64,000 bases of DNA from Gammaproteobacteria bacterium (GCA_965202685.1 OZ241853.1:1176262-1240261), one strand, 5' to 3'; positions 6,714-57,876 are shown, counted from the first letter of the stretch. Numbers and translations are program-made. Notes: generated by a model not told the origin, from the letters alone.

Positions 6714-7457
6714 GTGTTCAACCCCCCTCCCGAGTGGCGAAAAAAAGCCAAGCTAAAACTGGAGCGAGTCCACCTCCGCGACTTAGGCAGGCACTTGTAC
6801 CGGTGTCTGCGGACCTTGCGACAATGGCCGCGGACCCTGTTGCGCGCCAACAGCCGCATTGTCCAACGCTATTTTGCGCAGACAGACGAACCGAAATTGC
6901 ATCTTGGTTGTGGCGACTGCCTGCTGGAGGGCTGGCTGAATTCGGATTTGTTTCCCTGCTCTCCGCGGGTTTTGCGCCTGGATGCGACGCGCCCGTTTCC
7001 CTTTGCGTCCAACACTTTCGCCTACGCCTACAGCGAACATCTAATTGGGTTGCTTGCCACACGGCAGGCAAAGCGCATGTTGCGCGAGTGTTTTCGCGTG
7101 TTAGCGCCGGGCGGCAAGGTGCGCATCTGCACCCCGGATCTGGCTTTCCTGATTGAACTATGCGGCCCGCAACCTTCCGCGTTGCAAGAGCGGTACATTG
7201 AGTGGGCCAGCGGCCAGTCCACCGAAAGAGGGCGGGCCGTTGTAATCAACAACATGGGCGAGACTTACGGACCCTTTGTCTATGATGAACCGCACCTGCG
7301 CGGCGTCCTCGAGGACGCCGGTTTCTCGAATATAGTCTCGCGCGACCTGAACCAGAGCGATGACGCGGCGCTACGGGACCTGGCGAACGAGAAACGGTTG
7401 CCGGAGGGGTTTTTGCGGCTTGAATCACTCACCATGGAGGGGAGCAAACCTTTTTAG
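6714..7457 (+). CDS. Class I SAM-dependent methyltransferase (Methyltransf_11/25-like)
   Basis: LHLGCGDCLLEGWLNSD (motif I, GxGxG-like), FAYAYSEHLIGLL, and RVLAPGGKVRICTPD (motif post-II/III), typical of small-molecule/sugar methyltransferases. Confidence 0.7.
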   Translation: MFNPPPEWRKKAKLKLERVHLRDLGRHLYRCLRTLRQWPRTLLRANSRIVQRYFAQTDEPKLHLGCGDCLLEGWLNSDLFPCSPRVLRLDATRPFPFASNTFAYAYSEHLIGLLATRQAKRMLRECFRVLAPGGKVRICTPDLAFLIELCGPQPSALQERYIEWASGQSTERGRAVVINNMGETYGPFVYDEPHLRGVLEDAGFSNIVSRDLNQSDDAALRDLANEKRLPEGFLRLESLTMEGSKPF

Positions 7458-7610
7458 CTTGTTTTTAGCTTGTTAGTTTTTCGTCAGGCAACTGGCGTGA
7501 GGAGCGAGGAAGGGAGTGTGCAAGCAGCACATGACTGACTGAACGCGGAAGCGCCAGGACGCATGGCGGAAAACTAACAAGCTAAAAGCTAAAATGGTAG
7601 AATTGGGTGA

Positions 7611-9278
7611 ATGCTCAAACGCCTCCCTTTCATCCTGTTTGTCGCGGCCCTGGTTCTGGGCGCCTTCTTTGCTGGCATGTGGGTCTGGCAAGCCCGCGTG
7701 TTTCCCTATCACTTGGCGCACTCCGCTCACAAAACCCTGAGGGTCGCTCTGGAAATGCGCAACTTCATCGCGTCTGGAGACAGGGACAAGTTAGTGGCCG
7801 CGGCCCGGCGCGTCGCGCTGGAAAACGCGCCGGAGGGCGAAAGCAACAAGTTAAACACGGCGGACCTGCTTGAGTGCGACAGGTCCGAGGCGGCAAAGAA
7901 AACGAGGAGAAAACTTCGGTCAGAAAAATTCAAGCAACTGGGATGTCTGACAGCGCGCGTTGCCCGCCGCGAGGCGAGTGCAAAGCGCATCGAGTTCATC
8001 GTCGCCGACCGGCTCCATGACCCGGTGCTGGTAGGGGGAGGGGTCGGCATGTTTCTTGAGCATTGTCCACCCCCTCCGCATTCGGGGTTGTCTGGGGGTT
8101 GCTTGGCGGTGGAATATTCGCGCAATGGCGAAGTGAGCCGCGCCGTGCCATTCCGGCCCCAAGCCATCGAAGCGGCCAATATCGTTTCTGAAGAGGACTA
8201 CCTTTCTGAACATCCCCCGGGTTGGGTGTTCTGGAGAAATGTGAATGTGGTGTCAGTCGCCCCCTACCCTGACGGAGACTTGTTGGTCACTTTTCGACTG
8301 GCCCATACTTTTCCCTATGGCGGCGGCGCGGCCCGCGTGGCGCGAGACGGGCATCCGCGCTGGTTTCGCAAGGACTACAGCCACCACTGGCCCCATATTG
8401 TCGATGACCAACTCGCCTTGGTCCCAGGCGGGCGAATGGAATGGGGAAACAACGTTCTGCCCATGCGGGTGGGACATCTGAAAAAAGACATAACCTGTCA
8501 TCGCGATCAGAAATGGATGGTTGACACCGTCAACCTGATAGATGGCAAGGGGCGTCTATTGGAAGAGATTGACATCTTGGGCGCGTTGCTCGAATCTCCC
8601 TACAACGGCATCTTCCTCCTCCAGCTTAGGCAGTGTGATGTCACTCATCTTAACTTCGCGCACCAGCTGGGCGCCGACGCGGGCGGCGCGGACAGCATCG
8701 CCCCAGGCGACATCGTGGCCTCGTTGCGGAGTCTTAGCGCGTTCGGCATCATAGACCGGGACACTCGGCGGCTAAAGCGGTTGGTGCGAGGCAGTTTCGT
8801 CAATCAACACGCTGTCCGTCACTTTGAGAAGGCGCGGTTTCTCATGTTTGACAACTTGGGCACCGATGGCGTTCACGGCCCGTCCCGCTTGTTGATGGTT
8901 GACTTGGCCACCGGCAAGGAAACCACGCTGTTCCCCCGGGACCACACTCCGACCCATCTGCGCCGGGTTACGGCTGTCAATGGCCATATAGAGGTGTCGC
9001 CGGACCGGCAACGCGTTCTCTTCAATGAAAAAACACACGGCCGGATTCTGGAGTTGCGCCTTTCCGATGGCCGGGTTTTGAACATTTTTCGCCAGTTGCA
9101 TGATCTGTCGAGCGTCGATGCCATTCCTGACCCCTTTCGGCAACGGGCGTGGGTTTTCCAATCGGGGGCTTCTAGTTACGCTAACCAATGGTCCGATCAT
9201 CCCTCGACCGTTTCTTTTTCCTCAACATTGACGGCAAGATCGCCATCCGCCACGGAGACGAAAACGCGCCCGCCATGA
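7611..9278 (+). CDS. Membrane-anchored periplasmic protein of unknown function (paralog A). Weak resemblance to arylsulfotransferase-like beta-propeller proteins.
   Basis: 555 aa. N-terminal signal-anchor (LPFILFVAALVLGAFFAGMWVW) then a large soluble domain. Paralogous to 52851-54581. The C-terminal ~30 codons overlap the convergent clpA 3' end, so the real stop may be earlier. Confidence 0.6.
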   Translation: MLKRLPFILFVAALVLGAFFAGMWVWQARVFPYHLAHSAHKTLRVALEMRNFIASGDRDKLVAAARRVALENAPEGESNKLNTADLLECDRSEAAKKTRRKLRSEKFKQLGCLTARVARREASAKRIEFIVADRLHDPVLVGGGVGMFLEHCPPPPHSGLSGGCLAVEYSRNGEVSRAVPFRPQAIEAANIVSEEDYLSEHPPGWVFWRNVNVVSVAPYPDGDLLVTFRLAHTFPYGGGAARVARDGHPRWFRKDYSHHWPHIVDDQLALVPGGRMEWGNNVLPMRVGHLKKDITCHRDQKWMVDTVNLIDGKGRLLEEIDILGALLESPYNGIFLLQLRQCDVTHLNFAHQLGADAGGADSIAPGDIVASLRSLSAFGIIDRDTRRLKRLVRGSFVNQHAVRHFEKARFLMFDNLGTDGVHGPSRLLMVDLATGKETTLFPRDHTPTHLRRVTAVNGHIEVSPDRQRVLFNEKTHGRILELRLSDGRVLNIFRQLHDLSSVDAIPDPFRQRAWVFQSGASSYANQWSDHPSTVSFSSTLTARSPSATETKTRPP

Positions 9279-11458: not shown

Positions 11459-11477
11459 GTTCGATCTTGCGGTTTTT

Positions 11478-11810: not shown

Positions 11811-11899
11811 TTGTTTGACTTTCAGGGCGAATGATAGTGCAGTAAAGACGCCATTGCAACTTGCAGTTTTCCGTCATGCTGCCTAGCGCGACACTCGAG

Positions 11900-12012
11900 G
11901 GCCTAGCTTGGGGTCGGGCTTTTTGCGACACGCTGTGAATCCATCCTTGGACGCTCTCGGCGCGGCCATCCAGGCCGCACAGGGTCTTAAAGGCCCTGCC
12001 CCAAGCTACGCC
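11900..12012. repeat. ~115-nt hairpin-forming intergenic element (module C), copy 1 of 5. Candidate structured RNA or ERIC-like palindromic repeat.
   Basis: gggcctagcttggggtcgggcttttt...ccatcc...gctctcggcgcggccatccaggccgc(a/g)cagggtcttaaaggccctgccccaagct. The outer ~17-bp stem has compensatory changes across the copies at 25213-25348, 36600-36735 and 43893-44022, plus a truncated copy at 39036-39100. Confidence 0.6.
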
Positions 12013-12192
12013 CCTTTTAGCTTGTTAGTTTTCCGTTATCCTGCCTGGCGCTTCCGCGTTCAGTCAGTTTAGCTTGTCACATCCGCCATGCATCGCGGCA
12101 TTTCTTCACGCGGTCGGTCATGTATTTGACATACACTCCCTCCCGCGCTCATCATGCCGCTTGCCTGACGAAAAATTTCCGTCGCTAAATGC

Positions 12193-14283: not shown

Positions 14284-14468
14284 CTTGTTACATCCGCCAT
14301 GCAACTTGACGCATTGACCACATTTTAGCGACGGAAGTTTTTCGTCAGGCAAGCGGCGTGACGAGCGTTTAGCGACGGAAGTTTTTCGTCAGGCAACTGG
14401 CGTGACGAGCGCGGAAACGCCGCGCCACATGGCGGAAAGCTAACAAGCTAAAAGGGTAATATGGCGGT

Positions 14469-16478
14469 ATGGCGGCAATGACAAACCCCATTGGAGAACG
14501 GGCCCGATTTCATAGTCTGGCGTTGATCGTGTGGTCCCTGTTCCTGATAGCGGGCCTCGTCATCGGCGATGACTACGGCGTCCCGCCGTATGCGGGAGGC
14601 CAGCGTTTTGTCGCCATCGACACCCTCAACTATGTCCTGCATGGGGACCAAACCCTGTTGCAAATAGCCGCTGACCGCTTCTACGGCGTCGCCTTCGAGT
14701 TGCCCCTGTTCCTGTTGGAACGGGTCGTGGGTCTGGAAGACCCGCACTATGTTTATTTAGCCCGCCATGTTCTGACCCATCTGTTTTTTCTAATCGGCGG
14801 GTTCTGTTGCTATCTGCTGGCGCGGCGCTTGGCCGGCGACCGGCTGATCGCGCTGTTGGTCATGTTGCTGTTCCTGCTGTCCCCACGCCTTTACGCCCAT
14901 TCCTTCTTCAACAGCAAGGATGCGGTGTTCGCCAGCGCCTTCGTCATGGCATTGCTCTTTGCGAGCCGCGCCTTTGACAGGGACTCGGTGGGGGCCTATC
15001 GGTGGTGCGGGGCGGCGGCGGGGCTTCTCATCCACCTGCGCGTCATGGGCGTGGTTCTGTTTGCCGTCGTGTTGGTCTTTCGGGCCTGGGCCTGGTTCCG
15101 GGCCGGGCGCGGCGCGGGGCGGCGGCGGGTTGTAGTGACCACTGGGGTCTTTGCCCTGTGGGGGGGCCTTGTCTTGTTCATCAGCCTGCCCTATCTCTGG
15201 GGCGACCCCATAGGGCGTCTTTCAGAATATTGGACAGTGTTGGCCGACCATCCTGTCGTTTTTTATGAATTGTTCCGGGGTCAGGTGTTTTTCAGCGCGG
15301 CGTTGCCTTGGGATTATGTGTTGCGCTGGTTCGCCATCAGCCAGCCGCCGGTGACCTTGTTGTTGGGCCTGTTGGGCATGGGGGTCTTGGGCCTTGCCGT
15401 TAGGGGCGCCGTCAGACGCGGCGCGGGCGCCAGGCCGGGGCGCGGTTTGGGCGCCGCCGAGTTGCGCTTCGGCGTCTTGCTCGCAACCTGCTTTGCGTTG
15501 CCCCTGGTTGCCTTTGCCCTGTTGCGGCCCAACACCCTCCAGGGTTGGCGGCATTTTTATTTCCTGCACGGGCCGTTTTGCCTGCTGGCGACCTTCGCCC
15601 TGGCGTGGTTGCGCCAGCTGTCGGTTCGAGGGTTGCAAAGAAGATGGGTCGGCGGCGTTGCCTGCGCGCTGACAGCGGCGGGGCTAGGCGCGGCAGCGTT
15701 GGAGATGGCGCAGATCCATCCCCATCAATATCTCTATTTCAACTTTTTTGTGGACCGGAAGACCCCGGAACGGCTAAGCGAGCGCTACGAGACGGATTAC
15801 TGGAACATGATGTTGCGGCAAGGGTATGAACACATTCTGCGGCAAACGCCTGCTTCCACCATTAACATGAGGCCGCGGGTAGTTGGGACGGCGATGGTGG
15901 GGGTAGTTGGGACGGCGACGGTGGCGGACATCAACCGCAATGTGCAGATCCTTCCGGAGGCGGCCCGGAGCCGGTTCATCTTCGACCCCGCTCGGGACCC
16001 GGATTTCTACTTGGGCGGAAATGCGGAGAAAAGCTTCCTGCCTAAAGATCCTTTCTCTCCCGTTCTCCATCGGATCAAGGTCTATAACAACACCATTATG
16101 ACCATATCCACACCGGATTTGTCCCGGGTTGACCCAGCGGTGGCGAATGCGTATCGGGCTTTGCAGCGGGCGGCGATGGCGGGGGCGCCGGCGGCGCGGG
16201 CGGGGGGCTTTGATGTGCACCTGCATGGCCAGCGGCTGGCGTGGGTGAAGGAGGCTTGCGAGCCTGGGGAATTGATGTCGCCGTTCCGGCTCAGGTTTTA
16301 TCCGGCGGACGCGGGCCGGTTGCCGAACCATCTCCGGAAACATGGCTACTTTGCAACCAGCGTCCGCGGGGTGCGGTTTGACGGCAAGTGCCTGGGGGCG
16401 CGACGACTGCCGGATTTCGCCTTGGCCCGGGTGCGCTTGGGGCAACCAGGGAAGTGGGAAGTCGACATCCCCTTTTAG
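14469..16478 (+). CDS. Array copy 2: GT-C-like membrane glycosyltransferase paralog
   Basis: 669 aa with the same conserved TM core and C-terminal domain. Linker contains a 24-bp x2 in-frame tandem repeat (15879-15926, VVGTAMVG/VVGTATVA). C-tail class GKWEVDIPF. Confidence 0.85.
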   Translation: MAAMTNPIGERARFHSLALIVWSLFLIAGLVIGDDYGVPPYAGGQRFVAIDTLNYVLHGDQTLLQIAADRFYGVAFELPLFLLERVVGLEDPHYVYLARHVLTHLFFLIGGFCCYLLARRLAGDRLIALLVMLLFLLSPRLYAHSFFNSKDAVFASAFVMALLFASRAFDRDSVGAYRWCGAAAGLLIHLRVMGVVLFAVVLVFRAWAWFRAGRGAGRRRVVVTTGVFALWGGLVLFISLPYLWGDPIGRLSEYWTVLADHPVVFYELFRGQVFFSAALPWDYVLRWFAISQPPVTLLLGLLGMGVLGLAVRGAVRRGAGARPGRGLGAAELRFGVLLATCFALPLVAFALLRPNTLQGWRHFYFLHGPFCLLATFALAWLRQLSVRGLQRRWVGGVACALTAAGLGAAALEMAQIHPHQYLYFNFFVDRKTPERLSERYETDYWNMMLRQGYEHILRQTPASTINMRPRVVGTAMVGVVGTATVADINRNVQILPEAARSRFIFDPARDPDFYLGGNAEKSFLPKDPFSPVLHRIKVYNNTIMTISTPDLSRVDPAVANAYRALQRAAMAGAPAARAGGFDVHLHGQRLAWVKEACEPGELMSPFRLRFYPADAGRLPNHLRKHGYFATSVRGVRFDGKCLGARRLPDFALARVRLGQPGKWEVDIPF

Positions 16479-16653
16479 CTTGTTAATTTTCCGCCATGCA
16501 TCGCGGCGTTTCTTCGCTCGGTCAGTCATGTATTTAATATACACTTCTTCCCTCGCTCATCACGCCGCTTGCCTGACGAAAAATTTCCGTCGCTAAAATA
16601 GTCGTAGTTTTCCGTTATCCCGCCTGGTGCATTGACCACTATATAATAGCGGC

Positions 16654-44117: not shown

Positions 44118-46118
44118 GTGTATATTAAATACATGACCGACCGCGTGAAGAAATGCCGCGATGCATGGCGGAAAACTGACAAGCTAAAAGGCTTGGCGTT
44201 GAGCGTGTGGGCCTTGTTCCTGATAGCGGGCCTCGCCATCGTCGATGACTACGGCGTCTCGTCGGCTACGGAACCCCAGCGTCTTATCGCCATCAACACC
44301 CTCAATTATGTCCTGCATAACGACCCAACCCTGTTGCAAATAGCCGCTGACCGCTTCTACGGCGCCGCCTTCGAGGCGCCCCTGTTCCTGTTGACGGAAC
44401 GGGGCCTGGGCCTGGAAGACCCGCGCCATGTCTATTTAGCTCGCCATGCCCTGACCCATCTGTTTTTTCTGCTTGGCGGGTTCTGTTGCTATCTGTTGGC
44501 GTTTCGCTTGTCCGGCAACCGGCTGGCGGCGCTGTTGGTCATGGCGCTGTTCCTGCTGTCCCCGCGTCTCTACGCCCATTCCTTCTTCAACAGCAAGGAT
44601 CCAGTGTTCGCCAGCGCCTTCGTCATGGCCTTGCTCGTTGTGAGCCGCGCCTTTGACAAGGACTCGGTGGGGGGCTATCGGTGGGGCGGGGCGGCAACGG
44701 GGCTTCTCATCCACCTGCGCGTCATGGGCGTGGTTCTGTTTGCCGCCGTGTTGCTCTTTCGGGCTTGGGCCTGGTTTCGGGCCGGGGGTGGCGCGGCGCG
44801 GCGGCGGGTTGTGGCGACCACTGGCGCTTTCGCCCTGTGGGGGGTCCTTGTCTTGTTCATCAGCCTGCCCTATCTCTGGGGCGACCCCGCAGGGCGGTTT
44901 TCAGAATATTGGACAGTGTTGGCCGACCATCCTGTCGTTTCTAATGAATTATTTCGGGGCAAGGTGTTTTCCAGCGCGGCGTTGCCTTGGGACTATGTGT
45001 CGCACTGGTTCGTCATCAGCCAGCCGCCGGTGACCTTGTTGTTGGGGCTGTTGGGCCTAGTGGCCCTGGGCCTTGCCGCTGGGGGCGTCGTCAGACGCGG
45101 CGCGGGCGCCAGGCCGGGCGCGGCATGGGGGGGTGCCGAGTTGCGCTTCGGCATGTTGCTCGCAACCTGCTTTGCGTTGCCCCTGGTCGCCTTTGCGCTG
45201 TTGCGACCTAACACCCTCACTGGCTGGCGGCATTTTTATTTCCTGCACGGGCCTTTTTGCCTGCTGGCGACCTTCGCCCTGATGGGGTTGCGCCAGCTGG
45301 CGGCGCGGGGGTTGCAAAGGGGCTTGCTGAGCGGCGCGGCGTGCGCGCTGACGGTGGTGGGACTGGGCGCGGCGGCGTTGGAGATGGCGCAGATCCATCC
45401 CAACCAGCACCTTTATTTCAACTTTTTGGCGGACCGGAAAACCCCGGAGCGGCTACGGGCCCGCTACACCATGGATTACAATTTCATGGCGATGCGGCAG
45501 GGTTACGAATACCTGTTAAGACAAACCCCGTCCGCCGCCATTAACCTGGGAAAAAATCACTTCATCTCGAGGCTCATGTGGGGTGCAATGATTCTTCCCG
45601 CGGCAGACCGGCACCAGCTCACCTACGACCGCAGTCGCGACCCGGATTTCTATTTAAGCGGAAACGCAAGGCGAATCTTCTTGCTCAAAGATCCTTTCCC
45701 CCCTGTTCTCCATCGGCTCAAGGTCTATAACAACACCATTATAACCGTATCCACGCCGGATTTGTCCCGGGTTGCCCCGGCGGTGGCGGAGGCGTATCGG
45801 GCTTTGCATCGGGCGGCGACGGCGGGGGAACCGGTGGCGCGTGCGAGCGGCTATGAAGTCCACCGGCACGGCCAGCGGCTGGCATGGGTGAAAGAGGCTT
45901 GCGAGCCTGGGGAATTGATGTCGCCGTTCTGGCTCGCGCTTTATCCGGCGGACGCGGGCCGTTTGCCGGAATCGCGCCGGCGATGGGGCTACTTTATGCT
46001 CGGCACCCTTGGGGTGCGGTTTGACGGCAAGTGCCTGGGAGCAACGCGACTGCCGGACTTCGCCCTGGCCCGGGCGCGCCTGGGGCAACCAGGGAAGTGG
46101 ATCGAGTTGCCTCTTTAG
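44118..46118 (+). CDS. Array copy 15: GT-C-like paralog with 5' end replaced (junction ~44189)
   Basis: 666-aa ORF begins in the repeat (MYIKYMTDRVKKCRDAWRKTDKLK) and joins the family sequence at GLALSVWALF. Confidence 0.75.
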   Translation: MYIKYMTDRVKKCRDAWRKTDKLKGLALSVWALFLIAGLAIVDDYGVSSATEPQRLIAINTLNYVLHNDPTLLQIAADRFYGAAFEAPLFLLTERGLGLEDPRHVYLARHALTHLFFLLGGFCCYLLAFRLSGNRLAALLVMALFLLSPRLYAHSFFNSKDPVFASAFVMALLVVSRAFDKDSVGGYRWGGAATGLLIHLRVMGVVLFAAVLLFRAWAWFRAGGGAARRRVVATTGAFALWGVLVLFISLPYLWGDPAGRFSEYWTVLADHPVVSNELFRGKVFSSAALPWDYVSHWFVISQPPVTLLLGLLGLVALGLAAGGVVRRGAGARPGAAWGGAELRFGMLLATCFALPLVAFALLRPNTLTGWRHFYFLHGPFCLLATFALMGLRQLAARGLQRGLLSGAACALTVVGLGAAALEMAQIHPNQHLYFNFLADRKTPERLRARYTMDYNFMAMRQGYEYLLRQTPSAAINLGKNHFISRLMWGAMILPAADRHQLTYDRSRDPDFYLSGNARRIFLLKDPFPPVLHRLKVYNNTIITVSTPDLSRVAPAVAEAYRALHRAATAGEPVARASGYEVHRHGQRLAWVKEACEPGELMSPFWLALYPADAGRLPESRRRWGYFMLGTLGVRFDGKCLGATRLPDFALARARLGQPGKWIELPL

Positions 46119-46348
46119 TTTTTAGCTTGTTAGTTTTCCGCCATGTGGCGCGGCGTTCCCTCGCTCGGTCAGTTTTAGCTTGTTAGTTTTCCGTTATCCT
46201 GCCTGGCGCTTCCGCGTTCAGTCAGTCATGTATTTGATATACACTCCTTTCCGCGCTCATCACGTCGCTTGCCTGACGAAAAATTTCCGTCGCTAAAATG
46301 GTTGCGGGATAACGGAAAGCTAACAGGCTAAAAGGGTAATATGGCGGC

Positions 46349-48328
46349 ATGTCTGCAATGACAAGCCGCATTGGAGGACGGATACGGTTCCATCGCTTAG
46401 CGTTGAGCGTGTGGGCCTTGTTCCTGATAGCGGGTCTCGCCATCGTCGATGACTACGGCGTTTCGTGGGATACGGGAGTCCAGCGTGGCATCGCCCTCAC
46501 CACTCTCAACTACATCCTGCCTGACAACTCAGACCGGCTGCAAAGGTTTGCTGACCGCTTCTACGGCGCCGCTTTCGAGTTGCCCCTGTTCCTGTTGACG
46601 GAACGGATCCTGGGGCTGGAGGATCCGCGCCATGTCTATCTGACCCGCCATGTCCTGACCCATCTGTTTTTTCTGCTTGGCGGGATCTGTTGCTATCTGC
46701 TGGCGTGGCGCCTGTCCAGCGACCGGCTGGCGGCGCTGTTGGTCATGTTGCTGTTCCTGCTGTCCCCGCGTCTTTACGCCCATTCCTTCTTCAACAGCAA
46801 GGATGCGCCGTTCGCCAGCGCCTTCGTCATGGCCTTGCTCGTTGTGAGCCGCGCCTTTGACAGGGACTCGTTGGGGGCCTATCGGTGGGGTGGGATGGCG
46901 GTGGGGCTTCTCATCAACCTGCGCATCATGGGCGTGGTTCTGTTTGCCGTCGTGTTGCTCTTTCGAGCCTGGGCCTGGTTTCGGGCCGGGGGTGGCGCGA
47001 CGCGGCGGCGGATTGTGGCAACCACTAGCGCTTTCGCCCTGTGGGGGGTTCTTGTCTTGTTCATCAGCCTGCCCTACCTCTGGGGCGACCCCGCAGGGCG
47101 GCTTTCAGAATATTGGACAGTGTTGGCCGATCATCCTGTCGCTCAACGCGAATTGTTCCGGGGTCAGGCGTTTTCCGGCGCGGCGTTGCCTTGGGACTAT
47201 GTGTTGCACTGGTTCGCCATCAGCCAGCCGCCGGTGACCTTGTTGTTGGGTCTGTTGGGCCTAGTGGCCTTGGGCCTTGCCGCTAAGGGCGTCGTCAGAT
47301 GCGGCGCGGACGCCGGGCCGGGGCGCGGTTTGGGCGCCGCCGAGTTGCGCTTCGGCGTCTTGCTCGCAACCTGCTTTGCGTTGCCGCTGGTTGCCTTTGC
47401 GCTGTTGCGGCCCACCACTCTCGATAGCTGGCGGCATTTTTATTTCCTGCACGGGCCTTTTTGTCTGCTGGCGACCTTCGCCCTGATGGGGTTGCGCCAG
47501 TTGCCGGCGCGGGGGGCGCGAAAAGGATGGCTGGGCGGCGCGGCGTGCGGGCTGACAGCGGCGGGGCTGTGCGTCGCGGCGTTGGAGATGGCGCAGATCC
47601 ATCCCTACCAATATCTCTATTTCAACTTTCTAGCGGACCGGAAGACCCCGGAAGGGTTGCGCGAGCGCTACGAGACGGATTACTGGTTCCTGATGTTTCG
47701 GCAAGGATATGAACACATCCTGAAGCAAACGCCCGCTTCCACCATTAACATGAGGCCGCGAGCGCCAGCGGGCATCAACCGCAATGTGTGGATTCTCCCG
47801 GCGGCGGCCCGCAACCGGTTCACCCACGACCCCGCTCGGGATCCGGATTTCTACCTGGCAAGAAACTCCGGAATTCCGCCGCCAGGCGTGCTTAAGGACT
47901 CTTTTCCCCCCGTTCTCCACCGGTTCAAGGTCTATAACAACACCATGATGACCGTTTCCACGCCAGACCTGTCTCGGGTTGACCCGGCGGTGGCGGAGGC
48001 GTATCGGGCTTTGCATCGGGCGGCGACAGCGGGGGAACCGGTGGCGCGAGAGAGCGGCTATGAAGTGCACCGGCACGGCTCGCGGCTGGTGTGGGTGAAG
48101 GAGGCTTGCGAGCCTGGGGCGTTGATGTCGCCGTTCCGGCTCAGGTTTTACCCAGCGGACGCGACCCGTTTGCCGGCCCAGCGCCAGAAACGAGACTACT
48201 TCCGACTTAGAACCAGCGGGGCGCGGTTTGACGATAAGTGCCTGGGAGCGGCGCGGTTGCCAAACTTCGCCCTGGCCCGGGTGCGCTTGGGGCAACCAGG
48301 GAAGTGGGAAGTCGACATCCCCTTTTAG
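46349..48328 (+). CDS. Array copy 16: GT-C-like membrane glycosyltransferase paralog
   Basis: 659 aa; the conserved family core is present. Confidence 0.85.
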   Translation: MSAMTSRIGGRIRFHRLALSVWALFLIAGLAIVDDYGVSWDTGVQRGIALTTLNYILPDNSDRLQRFADRFYGAAFELPLFLLTERILGLEDPRHVYLTRHVLTHLFFLLGGICCYLLAWRLSSDRLAALLVMLLFLLSPRLYAHSFFNSKDAPFASAFVMALLVVSRAFDRDSLGAYRWGGMAVGLLINLRIMGVVLFAVVLLFRAWAWFRAGGGATRRRIVATTSAFALWGVLVLFISLPYLWGDPAGRLSEYWTVLADHPVAQRELFRGQAFSGAALPWDYVLHWFAISQPPVTLLLGLLGLVALGLAAKGVVRCGADAGPGRGLGAAELRFGVLLATCFALPLVAFALLRPTTLDSWRHFYFLHGPFCLLATFALMGLRQLPARGARKGWLGGAACGLTAAGLCVAALEMAQIHPYQYLYFNFLADRKTPEGLRERYETDYWFLMFRQGYEHILKQTPASTINMRPRAPAGINRNVWILPAAARNRFTHDPARDPDFYLARNSGIPPPGVLKDSFPPVLHRFKVYNNTMMTVSTPDLSRVDPAVAEAYRALHRAATAGEPVARESGYEVHRHGSRLVWVKEACEPGALMSPFRLRFYPADATRLPAQRQKRDYFRLRTSGARFDDKCLGAARLPNFALARVRLGQPGKWEVDIPF

Positions 48329-48742
48329 CTTGTTAGTTTTCCACCATGCGTCCTGGCGTTTCCTCGCTCGGCCAGTCATGTATTTGACATACACTCCTGC
48401 CCTCGCTCCTCACGCCAGTTGCCTGACGAAAAACTTCCGTCGCTAAAATAGTTGCAGTTTTCCGTTATTTTGCCCGGTGCTTCCGCGTTCAGTCAGTTTA
48501 GCTTGTTAGTTTTCCGCCATGCATCGCGGCGTTTCCTCACGCGGTCAGTCATGTATTTAATATACACTCCATCCCGTGCTCGTCACGCCGCTTGCCTGAC
48601 GAAAAACTTCCGTCGCTAAAAGTGTTGCAGGCTCCGTTATCCTGCCTGGCGCTTCCGCGTTCAGTCAGTCATGTATTTGATATACACTCCCTCCCTCACT
48701 TGTCGCGCCAGTTGTCTAACGAAAAACTTCCGTCGCTAAAAA

Positions 48743-50729
48743 ATGGTCAATTCACCGCTTGCATGGCGGAAAACTAACAAGCTAAAACGGGCCCGATTTC
48801 ATAGTCTGGCGCTGGTCGTGTGCGCCCTGTTTTTGATAGCGGGCCTCGTCATCGTCGATGACTACGGCGTCTCGTTAGATGCGGATGGACAACGCCGTGT
48901 CGCCATCAACACCCTCAACTATGTCCTGCATGAAGTCCAAACCCTGTTGCGAACCCATGACCGCTTCTACGGCGCCGCCTTCGAGGCGCCCCTGTTCCTC
49001 TTGACGGAACGGGTCCTGGGCCTGGAAGACCCGCGCCATGTCTATTTGGCCCGCCATGTCTTGACGCACTTGTTTTTTCTAATCGGCGGGTTCTGTTGCT
49101 ATCTGCTGGCGCGGCGCTTGGCCGGCGATCGTCTGATCGCGCTGTTGGTCATGTTGCTGTTCCTGCTGTCCCCGCGTCTTTACGCCCATTCCTTCTTCAA
49201 CAGCAAGGATCCAGTGTTCGCCAGCGCCTTCGTCATGGCCTTGCTCGTCGTGAGCCGCGCCTTTGACAGGGACTCGGTGGGGGCCTATCGGGGGTGCGGG
49301 GCAATGGCAGGATTTCTCATCAACCTGCGCATCATGGGCGTGGTTCTGTTTGCCGTCGTGTTGCTCTTTCGGGCCTGGGCCTGGTTTCGGGCCGAGGGCG
49401 CGGCGCGGCGGCGGGTTGTGGCGACCGCTGGCGCTTTCGCATTGTGGGGGGGTCTTGTCTTGTTCATCAGCCTGCCTTACCTCTGGAGGGACCCCGCAGG
49501 GCGGCTGGCGGAAATGGTCGCGCTGTTGTCCCACCATCCTAACATTGTCTTCGAACTGTTCCGGGGTCAGGTGTTTTCCAGCGCGGCGTTGCCTTGGGAC
49601 TATGTGTTGCGCTGGTTCGCCATCAGCCAGCCGCCGGTGACCTTGTTGTTGGGGCTGTTGGGCCTGGGGGCCTTGGGTCTTGCCGCTGGGAGCGTCGTCA
49701 GACGCGGCGCGGGCGCCGGGCCGGGCGCGGCATGGGGGGGGGGGGGGGGGGGAGTTGCGCTTCGGCATTCTGCTGGCAACCTGTTTTGCGTTGCCCCTGG
49801 TCGCCTTTGTCCTGTTGCGGCCCACGCTTTTCGATGGCTGGCGGCATTTTTATTTCCTGCACGGGCCTTTTTGCCTGCTGGCGACCTTCGCCCTGATGGG
49901 GTTGCGCCAACTATCGGTTCGAGGGTTGCAAAGAAAATGGCACGGCGGCGTTGCCTGCGCGCTGACGGCAACGGGTCTGGGCACGGCGGCGTTGGAGATG
50001 GCGCAGATCCATCCCCACCAATATCTCTATTTCAACTTTTTTGTGGACCGGAAGACCCCGGAACGGCTAAGCGAGCGCTACGAGACGGATTACTGGAACA
50101 TGATGTTGCGGCAAGGGTATGAACACATCCTGCGGCAAGCGCCCGCTTCCACCATTAACATGAGGCCGCGATTCAACCGCAGTGTGCAGATTCTCCCGGC
50201 GGCGGCCCGGAGCCGGTTCACCTACGACCCCGAGCGGGATCCGGATTTCTACTTGGTAAGCAACACCATAAATTCGCCGTCAAGCATGCTTAAGGACTCT
50301 TTTCCTCCCGTTCTTCATCGGCTCAAGGTCTATAACAACACCATGTTGATCGTATCCACGCCGGATCTGTCCCGGGTTGACCCGGCGGTGGCGGAGGCGT
50401 ATCGGGCTCTGCATCGGGCGGCGACAGCGGAGGCGCCGGCGGCCCGGGCGGGGGGCTTCGATGCGCGCCTGCATGGCGAGCGGCTGGCGTGGGTGAAGGA
50501 GGCTTGCGAGCCCGGGGAATTGATGGCGCCGTTCCGGCTCAGGCTTTATCCGGCGGACGCGGGCCGTTTGCCTAGTGGAAGCTACTTCGAACTCGGCATC
50601 CGCGGGGTGCGGTTTGATGGCAAGTGCCTGGGGGCGGCGCGACTGCCGGATTTCGCCCTGGCCCGGATTCGCCTGTGGCAGTTCGTTCTTGGCGGAGGTT
50701 TGCTGTGGGAAACTGATATCCACTTCTAA
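48743..50729 (+). pseudogene. Array copy 17: GT-C-like paralog split by a frameshift at a G19 homopolymer (ORFs 48743-50122 and 49680-50729). Either a pseudogene or a phase-variable gene. 5' end is also the replaced type (junction 48787/48788).
   Basis: Other copies read ...ggcgcggcatgggggggtgccgagttgcgc... (GAWGGAELRFG). Here the sequence is catg + 19 G + agttgcgc, and the frame switches at the tract. The downstream ORF resumes the conserved ELRFGILLATCF... sequence. Confidence 0.7.
49734..49752 (+). repeat. Homopolymeric G19 tract inside array copy 17 (candidate slipped-strand phase-variation site, or a sequencing error)
   Basis: Counted directly: G run from 49734 to 49752. Paralogous positions in other copies carry G7-TGCCG. 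Confidence 0.8.
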
Positions 50730-50844
50730 TTTTAGCTTGTTAGTTGCCTGGCGCTTCCGCGTTCAGTCAGTCATGTATTTGATATACACTCCTTCCTTCA
50801 CTTGGCGCGCCAGTTGCCTAACGAAAAACTTCCGTCGCTAAAAA

Positions 50845-52851
50845 ATGGTCAATTCACCGCTTGCATGGCGGAAAACTAACAAGCTAAAACGGGCCCGATT
50901 TCATAGTTTGGCGCTGGTCGTGTGGTCCCTGTTTTTGATCGCGGGCCTCGCCATTGTCGATGACTACGGCGTCTCGTGGGATGCGGGAGCCCAGCGTCTT
51001 ATCGCCATCAACACCGTCGACTATGTCCTGCATGATGACCCAGGCCGGTTACGATGGGTCGCTGACCGCTTCTACGGCGTCGCCTTCGAGTTGACCCTGT
51101 CCCTGTTGACGGAACGGGTCCTGGGGCTGGAAGACCCGCGCCATGTCTATTTGGCCCGCCATATCCTGACGCACTTGTTTTTTCTATTCGGCGGGTTCTG
51201 TTGCTATCTGCTGGCGTGGCGTCTGTCCGGCGACCGGCTGGTCGCGCTGTTGGTCATGTTGCTGTTCCTGCTGTCTCCGCGCCTGTACGCCCATTCCTTC
51301 TTCAACAGCAAGGATGCGGTGTTCGCCAGCGCCTTCGTGATGGCCTTGCTCTTTGTGTGTCGCGCCTTTGACAGGGACTCGGTGGGGGCCTATCGGTGGG
51401 GCGGGATGGCAGTGGGACTTCTCGTCCACCTGCGCATCATGGGCGTGGTTCTGTTTGCTCTCGTGTTGGTCTTTCGAGCCTGGGCCTGGTTTCGGGCCGA
51501 GGGGTGCGCGGCGCAACGACGGATTGTGGCGACCACTAGCGTCTTCGCCCTGTGGGGGGGCGTTGTCTTGTTCATCAGCCTGCCCTATCTCTGGGGCGAC
51601 CCCATAGAGCGGCTGGCGGAAATGGCCGTGGTGTCAGCTGATCATCCCATTCATCTTACCTCTTATGAGTTGTTCAGGGGGCAAGTGTTTCCTAGCGCGG
51701 CGTTGCCTTGGGACTATGTGTTGCGCTGGTTCGCCATCAGTCAGCCGCCTGTGGCCTTGTTGTTGGGGCTGTTGGGCCTGGGGGCCTTGGGTCTTGCCGT
51801 TTGGGGCGTCGTCAGGCGCGGCGCGGGTGCCGGGCCGGGCGCGGCATGGGGGGGCGCCGAGTTGCGCTTCGGCGTCCTGCTGGCAACCTGCTTCGTGTTG
51901 CCCATGGTTGCCTTTATTCTGTTGCGACCCACCACCATCGATGGCTGGCGGCATTTTTATTTCCTGCACGGGCCTTTTTGCCTGCTGGCGACCTTCGCCC
52001 TGATGAGAATGCGTCAGCTGTCAGTGCGAGGGTTGCGAAAAAGATGGGTTGGCGGCGCGGTCTGCGCACTGATGGCGGCGGGGGTGTGCGTCGTGGCCCT
52101 TGAGATGGCGCAGATCCATCCTAACCAGCATCTCTATTTCAATTTTTTTGTGGACCGGAAAACCCCGGAACGGCTAAACGAACGCTACGAGATGGATTAC
52201 TGGGACATGATGTTGCGGCAAGGATATGAACATATCCTGCGGCAAGCGCCCGCTTCCACCATTAACATGAGGCCGCGAGCGTCAGCGAACAACCGCCATG
52301 TGCAGATCCTGCCGGCGGCAGCCCGGAGCCAGTTCACCCACGACCCCGATCGGGACCCGGATTTCTACTTGGCAAGAAACGCCGGAATTCCGCCGCCAAG
52401 CTTGCTCAAGGGCTCTTTTCTCCCCGTTCTCCACCGGTTCAAGGTCTATAACAACACCATGATGACCGTTTCCACGCCGGATTTATCACGGATTGCTCCG
52501 ACGGCGGCGGATGCGTATCGGGCGTTGCATCAGGCGGCGACAGCAGGGGAACCAGCGGCCTGGGCGGGGGGGGTTGATGTGTATCTGCTTGGCGACCGGC
52601 TGGCGTGGGTGAAGGAGGCTTGCGAGCCTGGGGAATTGATGTCGCCGTTCCAGATCAGACTTTATCCGGCGGACGCGGGCCGTTTGCCTAGCGGTCTGCG
52701 GGAACGGGGTTACTTCGGACTCAGTGCCAGCGGGGTGCGGGTTGACGGCAATTGCCTATGGGGAACGCGACTGCCGGACTTCGCCCTAACCCGGATTCGC
52801 CTAAGGCAACCAGGGAAGTGGGAAGTTGAGGTAGTGGTAGAATTTGACTGA
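50845..52851 (+). CDS. Array copy 18: GT-C-like paralog. 5' end replaced (junction 50889/50890). 3' end lacks the family stop and intergenic spacer, and abuts the start of gene 52851.
   Basis: Family C-terminus ...GKWEVEV then continues VVEFD*. The stop TGA overlaps the ATG of the next gene (ttgacTGATGcc). The motif ggtagaatt at the junction matches the upstream region of paralog A (7596-7606). Confidence 0.75.
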   Translation: MVNSPLAWRKTNKLKRARFHSLALVVWSLFLIAGLAIVDDYGVSWDAGAQRLIAINTVDYVLHDDPGRLRWVADRFYGVAFELTLSLLTERVLGLEDPRHVYLARHILTHLFFLFGGFCCYLLAWRLSGDRLVALLVMLLFLLSPRLYAHSFFNSKDAVFASAFVMALLFVCRAFDRDSVGAYRWGGMAVGLLVHLRIMGVVLFALVLVFRAWAWFRAEGCAAQRRIVATTSVFALWGGVVLFISLPYLWGDPIERLAEMAVVSADHPIHLTSYELFRGQVFPSAALPWDYVLRWFAISQPPVALLLGLLGLGALGLAVWGVVRRGAGAGPGAAWGGAELRFGVLLATCFVLPMVAFILLRPTTIDGWRHFYFLHGPFCLLATFALMRMRQLSVRGLRKRWVGGAVCALMAAGVCVVALEMAQIHPNQHLYFNFFVDRKTPERLNERYEMDYWDMMLRQGYEHILRQAPASTINMRPRASANNRHVQILPAAARSQFTHDPDRDPDFYLARNAGIPPPSLLKGSFLPVLHRFKVYNNTMMTVSTPDLSRIAPTAADAYRALHQAATAGEPAAWAGGVDVYLLGDRLAWVKEACEPGELMSPFQIRLYPADAGRLPSGLRERGYFGLSASGVRVDGNCLWGTRLPDFALTRIRLRQPGKWEVEVVVEFD

Positions 52852-54581: not shown

Positions 54582-54906
54582 CTTGTTTAGCTTGTTAGTT
54601 TTCCGCCATGTGGCGCGGCGTTTCCCCGCTCGGCCAGTTTTAGCTTGTTAGTTTTCCGTTATGTTGCCTAGCGCTTCCGCGTTCAGTCAGTTTAGCTTGT
54701 TACATCCGCCATGCGTCCTGGCGTTTCCTCGCTCGGCCAGTCATGTATTTGACATACACTCCCGCCCTCGCTCCTCACGCCAGTTGCCTGGCGAAAAATT
54801 TCCGTCGCTAAATGTTTGTCGCGCCAGTTGTCTAACGAAAAACTTCCGTCGCTAAAAAGTGGTCAATTCGCCAGTTGCCTGACGAAAAATTTCCGTCGCT
54901 AAAAAT

Positions 54907-56889
54907 GTGTGGTTTTCCGCCATGACAGCAATAACAAATCGCATTGGAGAACGGATCCGGTTCCATCGCTTAGCCTTGATTACCTGCGCCCTGTTCCTCC
55001 TCGCGGGCCTCGCCCTCGTCGATGACTACGGCGTCTCGTGGGATACGAAAGCCCAGCGTCTTGTCGCCATCAACACCTTCAACTATGTCCTGCATGGGGA
55101 TCCAGCCCTGTTGCGAACCCATGACCGCTTCTACGGCGCCGCTTTCGAGGCGCCCCTGTTGCTGTTGACGGAACGAATCCTGGGGCTGGAAGACCCGCGC
55201 CATGTCCACTTGGCCCGCCATGTCTTGACCCACCTGTTTTTTCTAATCGGCGGGTTCTGTTGCTATCTGTTGGCGCGGCGCCTGTCCGGCGACCGGCTGA
55301 CCGCGCTGTTGGTCATGGCGCTGTTCCTGCTGTCTCCGCGCCTGTACGCCCATTCCTTCTTCAACAACAAGGATCTAGTGTTCGCCAGCGCCTTCGTGAT
55401 GGCCTTGCTCGTTGTGAGCCGCGCCTTTGACAAGGATTCGGTGGGGGCCTATCGATGGTGCGGAGCGGCGGCGGGGCTTCTCGTCAACCTGCGCATCATG
55501 GGCATGGTTCTGTTCGCCGTCGTGTTGCTCTTTCGGGCCTGGGCCTGGTTCCGGGCCGGGGATGGCGTAGCGCGGCGGCGAGTTGTGGCAACCACTGGGG
55601 CTTTTGCCCTGTGGGGGGTCATTGTCTTGTACATCAGCCTGCCCTATCTATGGGAAGACCCCGTAGGGCGGTTTTCAGAATATTGGACAGTGTTGTCCGA
55701 CCCTCCTTTCAACAGGCACCGCATATTGTTCCAGGGTCAGGCATTTTGGGCGTTTTCCGGCGCGGCGTTGCCTTGGGATTATATGTTGCACTGGTTCGCC
55801 ATCAGCCAGCCGCCGGTGACCTTGTTGTTGGGTCTGTTGGGCCTAGTGGCCCTGGGCTTTGCCGCTGGGGGCGTCGTCAGACGCGGCGCAGGCGCCGGGC
55901 CGGGACGCGGTTTGGGCGCCGCCGAGTTGCGCTTTGGCATCCTGCTCGCAACCTGCTTCGTGTTGCCCCTGCTCGCCTTTGCGCTGTTGCGGCATAACAC
56001 CATCAATGGCTGGCGGCAATTTTATTTCCTGCACGGGCCGTTTTGCCTGCTGGCGACCTTCGCCCTGGCGTGGTTGCGCGGGTTGTCTGTCCGGGGGTTG
56101 CGAAAAGAATGGGTGGGCGGCGCGGCGTGCGCGCTGACGGCGGCGGGACTGGGCGCGGCGGCGTTGGAGATGGCGCAGATCCATCCTAACCAGCACCTTT
56201 ATTTCAACTTTTTAGCGGACCGGAAAACCCCGGAACGACTGCGCGAGCGCTATCGGATGGATTACTGGGACCTGATGTTTCGGCAAGGATATGAACACAT
56301 CATGCAACGAGAGCCTGCTTCCATCATTAACATGAGAGGGCACCGGAATATGCAGATCCTCCCGGCGGCGGTCCGGAGCCGGTTCACCTTCGACCCCGCT
56401 CAGGATCCGGATTTCTATTTAAGCGGAAGCGGAGAGCCCAGCTTCCTACTCAAAGATCCTTTCCCTCCCATTCTCCATCGGATCAAGCTCTATAACAACA
56501 CGATGTTGACCGTGTCCACACCGGATCTGTCTCGGGTTGACCCGGCGGTGGCGAATGAGTATCGGGCTTTGCATCGGGCGGCGACGGCGGGGGAACCGGC
56601 GGTCCGGGCGGGGGGCTTCGATGTGCACCTGCATGGCGACCGGCTGGCGTGGGTGAAGGAGGCTTGCGAGCCTGGGGAATTGTGGTTTCCGTTCCGGCTC
56701 AGACTTTATCCGGCGAACGCGGACCTTTTGCCGGACCCTCTCCTCCGGAAACAGGGCGGCTTTGCAATCAGCGCCTTTGGGGTGCGGTTTGACGGCAAGT
56801 GCCTGGGGGCGGCGCGGTTGCCGGACTTCGCCCTAACCCGGATTCGCCTAGGGCAACGGGGGATGTGGGAAACCGAAGTGCCCCTTTAG
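54907..56889 (+). CDS. Array copy 19: GT-C-like membrane glycosyltransferase paralog
   Basis: 660-aa ORF (probable start MTAITNRIGE at ~54922) with the conserved family core. Last copy before rsmA. Confidence 0.85.
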   Translation: MWFSAMTAITNRIGERIRFHRLALITCALFLLAGLALVDDYGVSWDTKAQRLVAINTFNYVLHGDPALLRTHDRFYGAAFEAPLLLLTERILGLEDPRHVHLARHVLTHLFFLIGGFCCYLLARRLSGDRLTALLVMALFLLSPRLYAHSFFNNKDLVFASAFVMALLVVSRAFDKDSVGAYRWCGAAAGLLVNLRIMGMVLFAVVLLFRAWAWFRAGDGVARRRVVATTGAFALWGVIVLYISLPYLWEDPVGRFSEYWTVLSDPPFNRHRILFQGQAFWAFSGAALPWDYMLHWFAISQPPVTLLLGLLGLVALGFAAGGVVRRGAGAGPGRGLGAAELRFGILLATCFVLPLLAFALLRHNTINGWRQFYFLHGPFCLLATFALAWLRGLSVRGLRKEWVGGAACALTAAGLGAAALEMAQIHPNQHLYFNFLADRKTPERLRERYRMDYWDLMFRQGYEHIMQREPASIINMRGHRNMQILPAAVRSRFTFDPAQDPDFYLSGSGEPSFLLKDPFPPILHRIKLYNNTMLTVSTPDLSRVDPAVANEYRALHRAATAGEPAVRAGGFDVHLHGDRLAWVKEACEPGELWFPFRLRLYPANADLLPDPLLRKQGGFAISAFGVRFDGKCLGAARLPDFALTRIRLGQRGMWETEVPL

Positions 56890-57048
56890 CTTGTTAGTTT
56901 TCCGCCAGGCGTCCTGGCGTTTCCTCGCTCGGCCAGTCATGTATTTGACATACACTCCTGCCCTCGCTCCTCACGCCAGTTGCCTGACGAAAAACTTCCG
57001 TCGCTAAAAGTGTGTGGTTTTCCGCCATGTGGCGTGGCGTTTCTTCAT

Positions 57049-57876
57049 TTATCTTGTCAGTTTTGCGTTATTCTGCCTGGTGCTTCCGCGTTCGGCCCAG
57101 GCATTGGCAAGATTGCTGTAGTCCTCAACACTTAAATCCGCCGGACGGGCCGAAGGCGGGATGTTCAGGGCCTCCAGGCACTCTGCCAAAGGCAAGGCCT
57201 TTAGGCTGTTGCCGATTTTTTTGCGCCGTTGGGAGAAGGCCGCGCGAACCAACTCAGAAAACCGTCCGTAGTCTTTGACCCGTTTGCGAGAATGGAGCGC
57301 GGCAGTCAGGCGGGTCAAAGCCGAATGAACTTTCGGCGGCGGGGAAAAGGCCGCCGGCCCCACCTCAAACAGCTTTTCCGGAGCGCATTGCGCCTGCGCC
57401 ATGACGCTGAGCCGGCCATAGCCGGGGTCGCCCGGCGCGGCGCACAGCCTGTCCACCACCTCTTTTTGCAACATGAAGACCATCTGGTGGATATGGGGGA
57501 AACGCAACAGGTGGAACAGCAAGGGGGTGGATATATTGTAAGGCAGGTTGCCCACCAGCTTGAGCCGGCGCTCCGGGAAGGTCGTGGCGAAATCCAGTCG
57601 CAGGGCGTCTTGGCGCAACACTTTGAGCTTCCCCTGGCCACGGCATTTTTCCTCGAGGCGGGCGGCCAGGTCCCAGTCTATCTCAACCACATCCAGCTGT
57701 CCGACCCGGGCCAGCAACGGCAAGGTCAGCGCGCCTTTGCCAGGGCCGATCTCCACGATCCGTTCGTCCGGGCGCGGGTCTATGGCCTGCGCAACTCGCT
57801 CCACCACCGAGTCGTCGATGAGAAAACGCTGGCCGAAGCGTTTGCGCGGGCGCGGCAAGCTAGCTCTTCTCGCCAA
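57049..57876 (-). CDS. rsmA: 16S rRNA (adenine1518-N6/adenine1519-N6)-dimethyltransferase RsmA/KsgA
   Basis: N-terminus RKRFGQRFLIDDSVVERV and the SAM-binding region EIGPGKGALT. Position next to pdxA-surA-lptD matches conserved proteobacterial synteny. Confidence 0.95.
   Translation of the reverse strand: MARRASLPRPRKRFGQRFLIDDSVVERVAQAIDPRPDERIVEIGPGKGALTLPLLARVGQLDVVEIDWDLAARLEEKCRGQGKLKVLRQDALRLDFATTFPERRLKLVGNLPYNISTPLLFHLLRFPHIHQMVFMLQKEVVDRLCAAPGDPGYGRLSVMAQAQCAPEKLFEVGPAAFSPPPKVHSALTRLTAALHSRKRVKDYGRFSELVRAAFSQRRKKIGNSLKALPLAECLEALNIPPSARPADLSVEDYSNLANAWAERGSTRQNNAKLTR

Follow-up and report, generated by a model that had tools for sequence, protein, structure and literature searches.

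The stretch analysed here, 64,000 nucleotides from a gammaproteobacterium (GCA_965202685.1, OZ241853.1:1176262-1240261; referred to below as the window), holds a long array of paralogous genes whose spacers are built from a 126-bp palindromic repeat, and it is this repeat that we describe. The left side of the window is occupied by a glycan-type gene cluster, including a GT2 gene and a methyltransferase gene (6714-7457), which is followed by a gene termed A1 and then by clpA and clpS on the minus strand. From 12193 to 56889, 19 tandem paralogs of ~660 amino acids each run along the plus strand, with A2, a paralog of A1, set among them, and the right border of the array is formed by rsmA-pdxA-surA-lptD on the minus strand. 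Weak matches to PMT/PMT_2 are all that Pfam yields for the paralogs, which on this basis are regarded as GT-C glycosyltransferase-like membrane proteins; at least six more are encoded in the source genome outside the window. Six of the window paralogs match proteins of a 2,971,370-bp NCBI/ENA contig with 100% identity, which places the window in that complete genome or in one nearly identical to it.

Modular anatomy of the spacers

When all spacers of the array were printed out, each of them between 7452 and 57103 proved to be a mosaic of common modules, present in both orientations and partly in tandem. The spacers measure 54-677 bp and contain from zero to three elements in either orientation, ranging from a 54-bp spacer without a full element (20818-20871) to one of 474 bp with three. 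Pattern searches of the window returned 47 matches to module a (TTTTAGCTTGTTAGTTTTCCG; up to 3 mismatches) against 0.01 expected, 34 to module d (GACGAAAAAYTTCCGTCGCTAAAA) against 0 expected, and 18 to module c (CATGTATTTGAYATACACTCC) against 0 expected, all of them within 7463-57009 and on both strands. A module map made with blastn-short placed 159 module matches between 7452 and 57093, so that the proposal of the initial annotation (a reading of the window from its sequence alone) that all spacers share the same modules is confirmed by counts far above chance.

A profile search (nhmmer) with a model built on five element copies defined the unit as 126 bp long and found 20 full-length copies in the window (11 on the plus and 9 on the minus strand), together with 5 near-full copies and ~35 fragments, in good agreement with the ~125-bp repeat in both orientations that had first been noticed. 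The breakpoints of the fragments recur, at model positions 1-54, 82-126, 17-126, and 1-30. Tandem Repeats Finder likewise recovered the tandem run noted earlier at 41424-41760 (~120 bp, 2.7 copies) as a 120-bp array at 41422-41762 with 2.8 copies and 94% matches, in addition to other arrays with periods of 21, 44, 53, and 173 bp.

The whole 126-bp unit, with modules in the order a-b-c-d, is an imperfect palindrome from TTTTAGC at one end to GCTAAAA at the other; the short terminal inverted repeats initially described are therefore present, but they are only the tip of a palindrome that spans the entire element. These termini do not vary, and ~16 of 22 positions agree between module a and reversed module d. 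Module b occurs in two versions (b1 and b2), module d in two versions that match b1 or b2, and the apex module c in two versions as well, TGTAT…ATACA and TGTGC…GCACA. A possible reading of module c as a dif/Xer-like site was rejected on inspection by eye. Module boundaries coincide with TTTAGC; the ~6 kb of spacer contain this hexamer 95 times, compared with 11 occurrences in the ~38 kb of array genes and 5 in 18.6 kb of flanking sequence, and the sub-units of 21, 44, 53, and 120 bp begin or finish at the same heptamer.

The element is in turn part of a larger recurring unit of ~161 bp, the ends of which are near-perfect inverted repeats of 21-24 bp (CCCTTTTAGCTTGTTAGTTTTCCG and CGGAAAACTAACAAGCTAAAAGGG) that, counting the flanking CCC/GGG, border each spacer core. 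Nearly every spacer opens with module a on the plus strand, and most close with inverted module a, followed by GGGTAATATGGCGGC and ATG. Between these borders, two states of the core are found, a-b-c-d-x-a' and a-x'-d'-c'-b'-a', and the linker x is flipped between them as well; the segments 18662-18822 and 44029-44189, for example, are 90% reverse-complementary over 165 nt, linker included.

A second palindromic repeat family of ~125 bp, termed e and unrelated to the 126-bp element, is present in five spacers. Its arms of 23-26 bp (GGGC[C/A]TAGCTTGGGG…) flank a 65-nt loop, and the arm variants co-vary (TCGGGC/GCCCGA, CAGGGC/GCCCTG, and TGGGGT/GCCCCA).

Covariation of the hairpin and copying of the unit

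Single copies of the element fold end to end as one hairpin, with z-scores from -0.9 to -4.9. Covariation was examined in 40 full copies, taken from the window and from two loci of a sister strain (ERZ25068319 contig_1, 2,972,662 bp), namely L005, which is the orthologous array, and L006, a second array. Across these copies 94.6% of cells in the 41-pair hairpin are paired, and 12 of the 41 pairs have changed on both sides, amounting to 110 cells. None of 500 shuffles reached the observed pairing, double changes, or covariation score, and in a control with partners slid by 1-3 columns just 34-50% of cells pair. Columns 14 and 113 covary (G-C in 18 copies, A-U in 11), linking termini that lie ~100 nt apart. 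Different pairs divide the copies differently (19/17, 25/8, 26/8, 27/8, 28/7, 23/7, 30/8, and 18/11), and several independent events must therefore have taken place. Kinship alone can lift related sequences above shuffles without any structure, which is a caveat on the shuffle test; a real covariation signal is nevertheless indicated by the slid controls and by how many distinct pair types there are.

In a smaller copy set, G-U and A-C exceptions were equally frequent (13 each), and thus neither strand is favoured as RNA. Since compensatory substitutions maintain the hairpin, selection acts on the folded state, for which single-stranded DNA, a cruciform, and RNA are all candidates. The Rfam screen suggested by the initial annotation gave nothing at gathering thresholds, and a permissive search of two spacers returned only RT-17 (E 0.25), below threshold.

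The relationships among the copies point to copying that is independent of the genes. Mean identity between element copies is 84-87% regardless of spacer, array, or strain, and 35 of the 780 pairs are at least 97.6% identical, including one pair with 100% identity whose members come from arrays 1 Mb apart and another, 99.2% identical, from a sister-strain array and the window. Pairs of 98-100% identity match from TTTTAGC as far as GCTAAAA, with unrelated sequence on either side. For comparison, whole paralog genes are at most 87% identical to one another; 126-bp windows of non-orthologous paralog genes reach 97.6% in 0.15% of cases, and no 126-bp window in the gene 3' ends beside the spacers does so, which leaves the elements with a ~30-fold excess of near-identical pairs over gene windows. 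Because identical elements sit in unrelated flanks while the genes are no more than 87% identical, the repeat is not mere spacer carried along by gene duplication. Renewal or homogenisation affects the element as a discrete, sharp-ended unit, apart from the genes beside it, and extends over different spacers, arrays, and strains and over copies of either orientation.

The distribution of the repeat was followed through ~130 kb of sequence from two genomes. In the sister strain, the orthologous array L005 is filled by the same modules, and so is L006 (1,354,419-1,376,407), an array of the same gene family with at least 11 paralogs that lies ~1 Mb off. As an alternative to its own proposal, the initial annotation had named plain duplicated spacer, found nowhere else and without structural conservation; the second locus and the compensatory changes speak against this, and confinement to a single locus no longer holds. 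The TTTTAGC heptamer is itself tandemly expanded in places, with ~8 copies at L006:3017-3076 and 2 copies each at 27573-27586 and 25173-25189 of the window, and the tandem run sits directly upstream of a full element.

Searches further afield returned nothing above chance. An exact scan of 185,579 species-representative genomes, a collection from which the source genome is evidently absent, gave no match to module d and 2 single matches to module a in unrelated metagenome-assembled genomes, which is the chance level; module d had no match in JGI metagenomes, and the element had none in IMG/VR, plasmids, or phages and was missing from 520 kb of JGI metagenome loci with distant homologs of the paralogs (at most 33% identical). 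Six-frame translation of the element against 5.8 billion proteins yielded nothing at E 0.001, and this counts only as a weak negative.

The two strains share 91-98% identity in the flanking genes, yet their orthologous spacers are dissimilar in both composition and orientation, and one strain has a paralog that is missing from the other; these differences fit the earlier suggestion that the repeats serve as substrates for recombination. The element at 14368-14453 lacks its apex relative to the L005 ortholog, in which c and b2 remain, and in the e element at L005:12026-12142 the 65-nt loop is inverted within outer flanks that are identical and in the same orientation. In contrast, the strain of the window has an independent assembly, of low coverage (L083 and L004), that is colinear with positions 31933-64000 and differs in 0 of 11 spacers, which disfavours rapid switching. 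An assembly artefact was rejected, as the modules recur in three other assemblies, one from the same strain, one from the sister strain, and one a metagenome scaffold. The scaffold L001 (ERZ23495697 scaffold_8039), from a short-read metagenome of a related strain, stops inside the first paralog; arrays of this kind evidently cause short-read assemblies to fragment or collapse, a possible reason for the absence of the locus from representative genomes.

Junctions with genes and features of the array

The element overlaps coding sequence in several ways. The TAG within TT(T)TAGC provides the stop codon of 14 of 21 genes, and in 5 further genes the stop lies no more than 5 nt upstream of this motif. 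In six paralogs, inverted module a is joined directly to the coding sequence and contributes an in-frame ATG and a basic N-terminal tail (MVNSPLAWRKTNKLK… or MTDQARKRRDAWRKTDKLK…), with GCTAAAA continuing into either CGGGCCCGATT or GG(T/C)(C/T)TGGCG; the source-genome paralogs P0077 and P0107, outside the window, likewise start with element-encoded residues. At the right edge of the array, the last ~15 codons of rsmA and its TAA stop, which lies inside GCTAAAA, are encoded on the minus strand by a diverged a+b2 unit (57048-57103; C-terminus …AWAERGSTRQNNAKLTR). This housekeeping gene has thus taken up part of the repeat.

The idea that each copy brings its own promoter or terminator found no support, as a consensus scan of 14-33 kb revealed no enrichment of consensus sigma-70 promoters or intrinsic terminators in the spacers. 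Promoter scanning gave 3 sites against 5.3 expected, none of them in the flippable core except a weak GTGACG-16-TATATT. All start types share a -10-like hexamer 6-7 nt before the ATG and no Shine-Dalgarno sequence (e.g., 14457-14462, 20857-20862, and 29965-29970), laid out as TAATAT or TATAAT + GGCGGC + ATG or, in fused reverse copies, as TATATT or TATACT + AAATAC + ATG; in gene A1 the hexamer (7594-7599) is TGGTAGAAT. This arrangement suggests that transcription may be leaderless.

The positions of the repeats and associated genes are collected below. Repeats border A1 and A2 as well as rsmA, as the initial annotation had stated for gene A and rsmA.

Table 1. Repeat copies and associated genes in the window, by position (strand of the repeat where given).
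Feature	Position	Strand	Remarks
Repeats flanking gene A1	7458-7610		
Full 126-bp element	7463..7587	-	Between methyltransferase gene and A1; nhmmer model 1-126, E 6.5e-29; d end is a hybrid with module a
Gene A1	7611-9278		
e repeat	11888..12011	+	Arms 23-26 bp, 65-nt loop
Other e copies	25217-25337, 36605-36728, 39049-39097 (partial), 43904-44017		
Full element, first spacer (clpS to paralog 1)	12068..12189	+	After e element and a+b2 unit; 100% identical to L005 orthologous copy
Reverse copies	14323..14453	-	44-bp d unit twice, then apex-deleted element; d joined to b1-a, module c missing; Tandem Repeats Finder 14324-14411, period 44
Full element	16473..16598	+	First TTTTAG contains stop codon of upstream paralog
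161-bp unit, F orientation	18662..18822	+	Full element 18662-18787, 14-nt linker x, inverted solo a 18802-18822; 90% reverse-complementary over 165 nt to 44025-44189
Minimal spacer	20812..20871	+	Module a alone, then CCATCCCGCCTGGCGCATTGACCGCTATATAATGGCGGC, then ATG; resembles an unoccupied site
Composite spacer	22856..23090	+	a, a+b1 (53-bp unit), full element 22930-23055, linker x, inverted solo a
Additional d unit	25380-25423		Beside reverse element 25425-25549
Reverse full element and reverse a+b1 unit	25425..25602	-	Element at 25425-25549
Full element and inverted a	27581..27752	+	Element 27581-27706; inverted a 27732-27752 fused in frame to next paralog, N-terminus MVNSPLAWRKTNKLK followed by RARFH
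Near-full and full reverse elements	29788..30033	-	Second (29908-30033) fused in frame to paralog 9, N-terminus MTDQARKRRDAWRKTDKLK followed by GLALS; TATATT 6 nt before ATG
Two reverse full elements	34283..34601	-	34283-34407 and 34476-34601; second fused in frame to most divergent paralog
Reverse full element, c2 apex (TGTGC…GCACA)	36832..37009	-	Plus reverse a+b1 unit directly before GGGTAATATGGCGGC-ATG
Reverse near-full and full elements	39139..39383	-	Tandem, 120-bp period
120-bp tandem array of reverse elements and reverse a+b1 unit	41422..41844	-	
161-bp unit, R orientation	44029..44189	-	Solo a on + (44029-44049), linker x', reverse full element 44064-44189 fused in frame to paralog 15
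a+b1 unit, full element, linker x, inverted solo a	46120..46333	+	Full element 46173-46298
Three forward elements, 173-bp period	48323..48787	+	48323-48448, 48497-48621, 48633-48741; closing inverted a fused to next paralog
Forward element with 12-nt internal deletion	50730..50889	+	Then inverted a fused to next paralog
Gene A2, paralog of gene A	52851-54581		Set among array paralogs
Repeats flanking gene A2	54582-54906		
Spacer after A2	54586..54904	+	Two a+b units, full element 54691-54812, two more 44-bp d units
Last full element, after final paralog	56885..57009	+	
Repeats flanking rsmA	56890-57103		
Diverged a+b2 unit	57048..57103	+	nhmmer E 4e-7

Several observations concern the genes themselves. 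With 19 copies in the window array, the paralogs form a very large family for a genome of 2.97 Mb, and >980 homologs are found in the protein database, nearly all of them from ENA metagenomes. The paralog at 34530-36575 is far more divergent than the rest (60-73% identity where other paralogs are 85-94% identical), and the paralog at 48743-50729 consists of two overlapping frames (48743-50122 and 49680-50729) and has the appearance of a pseudogene with a frameshift; two genes are called there in the independent assembly L004 as well. A1 and A2 are 56% identical, with an N-terminal membrane anchor and no Pfam match; A1 lies outside the array, beyond clpA, and A2 within it, where it overlaps the stop of the preceding paralog (ATGA). 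In the glycan-type cluster, a GT2 glycosyltransferase of 745 amino acids (4168-6405, minus strand) has arisen by in-frame tandem duplication, its halves being nearly identical and carrying one Glycos_transf_2 domain each.

Competing explanations and relation to known repeats

On this evidence we consider it probable that the repeat is a discrete unit under selection for its structure. It resembles miniature inverted-repeat transposable elements (MITEs) and REPINs (hairpin-forming doublets of repetitive extragenic palindromic, REP, sequences), as a lineage-specific, non-coding palindrome seen only beside one gene family and its immediate neighbours. The spread or renewal of copies would depend on a mechanism for which the element termini are the site of action or the limit; an enzyme encoded at another locus could mobilise the copies in trans, or palindromic copies could undergo gene conversion and template switching with one another. 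The palindromes, together with the 21-24-bp inverted repeats, would drive deletion of the apex and tandem partial duplication, and would also drive the inversion of segments between them and the unequal exchange by which paralogs are added or removed.

Several results weigh against mobility as part of this interpretation. No transposase or recombinase gene was found in the 64-kb window or in the 4.9 kb beyond it (L004), and tabulating the flanks of the 40 full copies revealed no target-site duplication and no direct repeat across the element. The flanks instead represent a small set of recurring junction types rather than random targets, those on the left being mostly …CCCC, …TCAG, or another module and those on the right falling into ~5 recurring types. 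No element occurs in 23.5 kb of non-array flank, all copies lying in the two same-family arrays or at their edges, and comparison with the sister strain showed complex replacements and indels only, with no clean presence/absence or flip of a single element at orthologous spacers. Moreover, gene conversion between copies with dissimilar flanks gives equally sharp boundaries, and transposition is therefore not demonstrated. The description of the repeat as MITE-like in the initial annotation thus stands in part: the element is small and non-coding, with inverted termini, both orientations, and tandem or truncated copies, but target-site duplication, dispersal, and a transposase in the window are lacking.

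These same results lend some weight to a different explanation, which we regard as possible but unlikely: the spacers were duplicated with the genes, and the hairpin is an immobile, functional cis element, such as an mRNA stabiliser or processing site or the target of a regulator, that is homogenised by conversion. In its favour, the element always holds a fixed place with respect to the genes, TTTTAG overlapping the stop codon in 14 of 21 genes and an inverted a standing just before most starts; the restriction to one gene family, the missing transposase and target-site duplication, and the conserved structure, which fits a functional hairpin, are also in keeping with it. A fixed cis function, however, does not predict several, partial, and opposite-oriented copies per spacer, nor a range from 54 bp without a full element to 474 bp with three, nor the differences between strains. 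The equal numbers of G-U and A-C exceptions favour no transcribed strand, and neither terminator or promoter consensus sequences nor Rfam families are matched.

A further possibility, which we consider improbable, is that the spacers are programmed invertible switches or take part in cassette shuffling, with a site-specific recombinase encoded elsewhere acting on the TTTTAGC core and the inverted repeats. Inversion would change which paralogs receive a start codon or promoter, and would result in phase variation of a ~40-member glycosyltransferase-like repertoire. Invertons, such as the invertible promoter fimS or the capsule promoters of Bacteroides, are likewise short segments bounded by inverted repeats and situated directly upstream of surface-glycan-type genes, with both orientations observed. 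Here, segments of ~115-120 bp between 21-24-bp inverted repeats occur in both orientations, with an inverted linker in 18662-18822 relative to 44029-44189; orthologous spacers differ in orientation between strains, the e loop is flipped in L005 within identical outer flanks, all module boundaries fall at one heptamer, and the gene-fused reverse copies carry the best -10-like hexamers (TATATT/TATACT), 6 nt before the ATG. Unlike invertons, however, the segments have no invertase gene nearby, with no recombinase gene at either array end, and no promoter consensus inside; the two same-strain assemblies show no difference in orientation at 11 spacers, and what distinguishes the strains is replacement and indels rather than any clean flip. 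Moreover, segments between hairpin stems can undergo small inversions without a dedicated enzyme, as in the loop inversions of chloroplast spacers.

The attC sites of sedentary chromosomal integrons are near-identical palindromes of ~126 bp in long arrays, in which the folded strand matters, and those of the Vibrio superintegron, the Vibrio cholerae repeats (VCRs), measure 123-126 bp. An integron-like cassette array, to which we assign next to no likelihood, would account for mutually similar, imperfect ~126-bp palindromes between the co-oriented genes of a very long array, but it is already contradicted by the present data, as both array ends are visible (clpS-clpA and rsmA-pdxA-surA-lptD) without an integrase or attI, the supposed cassettes are paralogs of one gene, several elements in both orientations share a spacer, and the R'/R'' cores (RYYYAAC/GTTRRRY) are absent, the nearest sequences, AACTAAC and GTTAGTT, each being one position off consensus.

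For the structure-selected unit that we favour, the closest known systems in form and covariation are MITEs and REPINs, the latter together with bacterial interspersed mosaic elements (BIMEs). Among MITEs, the Correia/NEMIS elements of Neisseria are ~100-160 bp long, with inverted termini, and are found near genes, in part as nested or truncated copies. The present element is similar in its size, inverted termini, occurrence in either orientation, and proximity to genes, in contributing regulatory or coding signals, and in its nested and truncated copies; it differs in having no TA or other target-site duplication and no dispersed copies, and in being palindromic throughout rather than at its ends alone. 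Rickettsia palindromic elements (RPEs) are inserted in frame in protein-coding genes and are scattered over many unrelated genes. As with RPEs, the palindromic repeat described here adds residues to proteins in frame, but its coding contributions are limited to the N-termini of one family's paralogs, to stop codons, and to the tail of rsmA.

REPINs and BIMEs are composed of REP doublets that form hairpins and are mobilised by RAYT transposases (PMC2817692; PMC3337134), each REP unit comprising a GT(A/G)G head and a short palindrome of ~20-35 nt (PMC2817692). They share with our element a non-coding hairpin of ~90-130 nt, the arms of which are kept complementary by correlated changes, as well as an organisation into lineage-specific mosaic clusters with alternating orientation and with solo and partial units (PMC2817692; PMC3337134). 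The element consensus, in contrast to REPs, has no GT(A/G)G head with a short GC-rich palindrome; its apex hairpin is TGTAT-N5-ATACA or TGTGC-N5-GCACA, its arms are AT-rich at the tips, and its termini overlap coding sequence, in both stop codons and N-terminal codons. REPs are normally present in >100 copies across extragenic space, whereas in the ~130 kb of two genomes read here the element lies only inside the arrays of one gene family, and no RAYT gene accompanies it in that sequence. An array-limited palindromic repeat of this kind would be a fresh variant alongside the known REPIN- and MITE-like types.

This restriction is what sets the repeat apart, as REPINs, MITEs, and attC sites are usually either genome-wide or tied to an integrase, and the present repeat is found only between the paralogs of one family, in at least two arrays. 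There is a slim chance that a dedicated recombinase, encoded elsewhere, recognises TTTTAGC and the 21-24-bp inverted repeats and shuffles, inverts, and duplicates the segments between paralogs in at least two arrays. If this were true, start codons, N-termini, and expression signals would be reassigned among ~40 glycosyltransferase-like paralogs by a new cassette-shuffling or phase-variation system based on a hairpin repeat, and a dedicated enzyme acting in this way would provide a new means of diversifying the gene repertoire for cell-surface glycosylation. The stop codons, the C-terminal tail of rsmA, and the alternative N-termini also show directly how the element joins genes. The locus thus offers a compact natural case for asking whether a local hairpin repeat spreads by transposition, gene conversion, or template switching, and whether repeats of this kind are what makes large paralog arrays grow, shrink, and change in structure.

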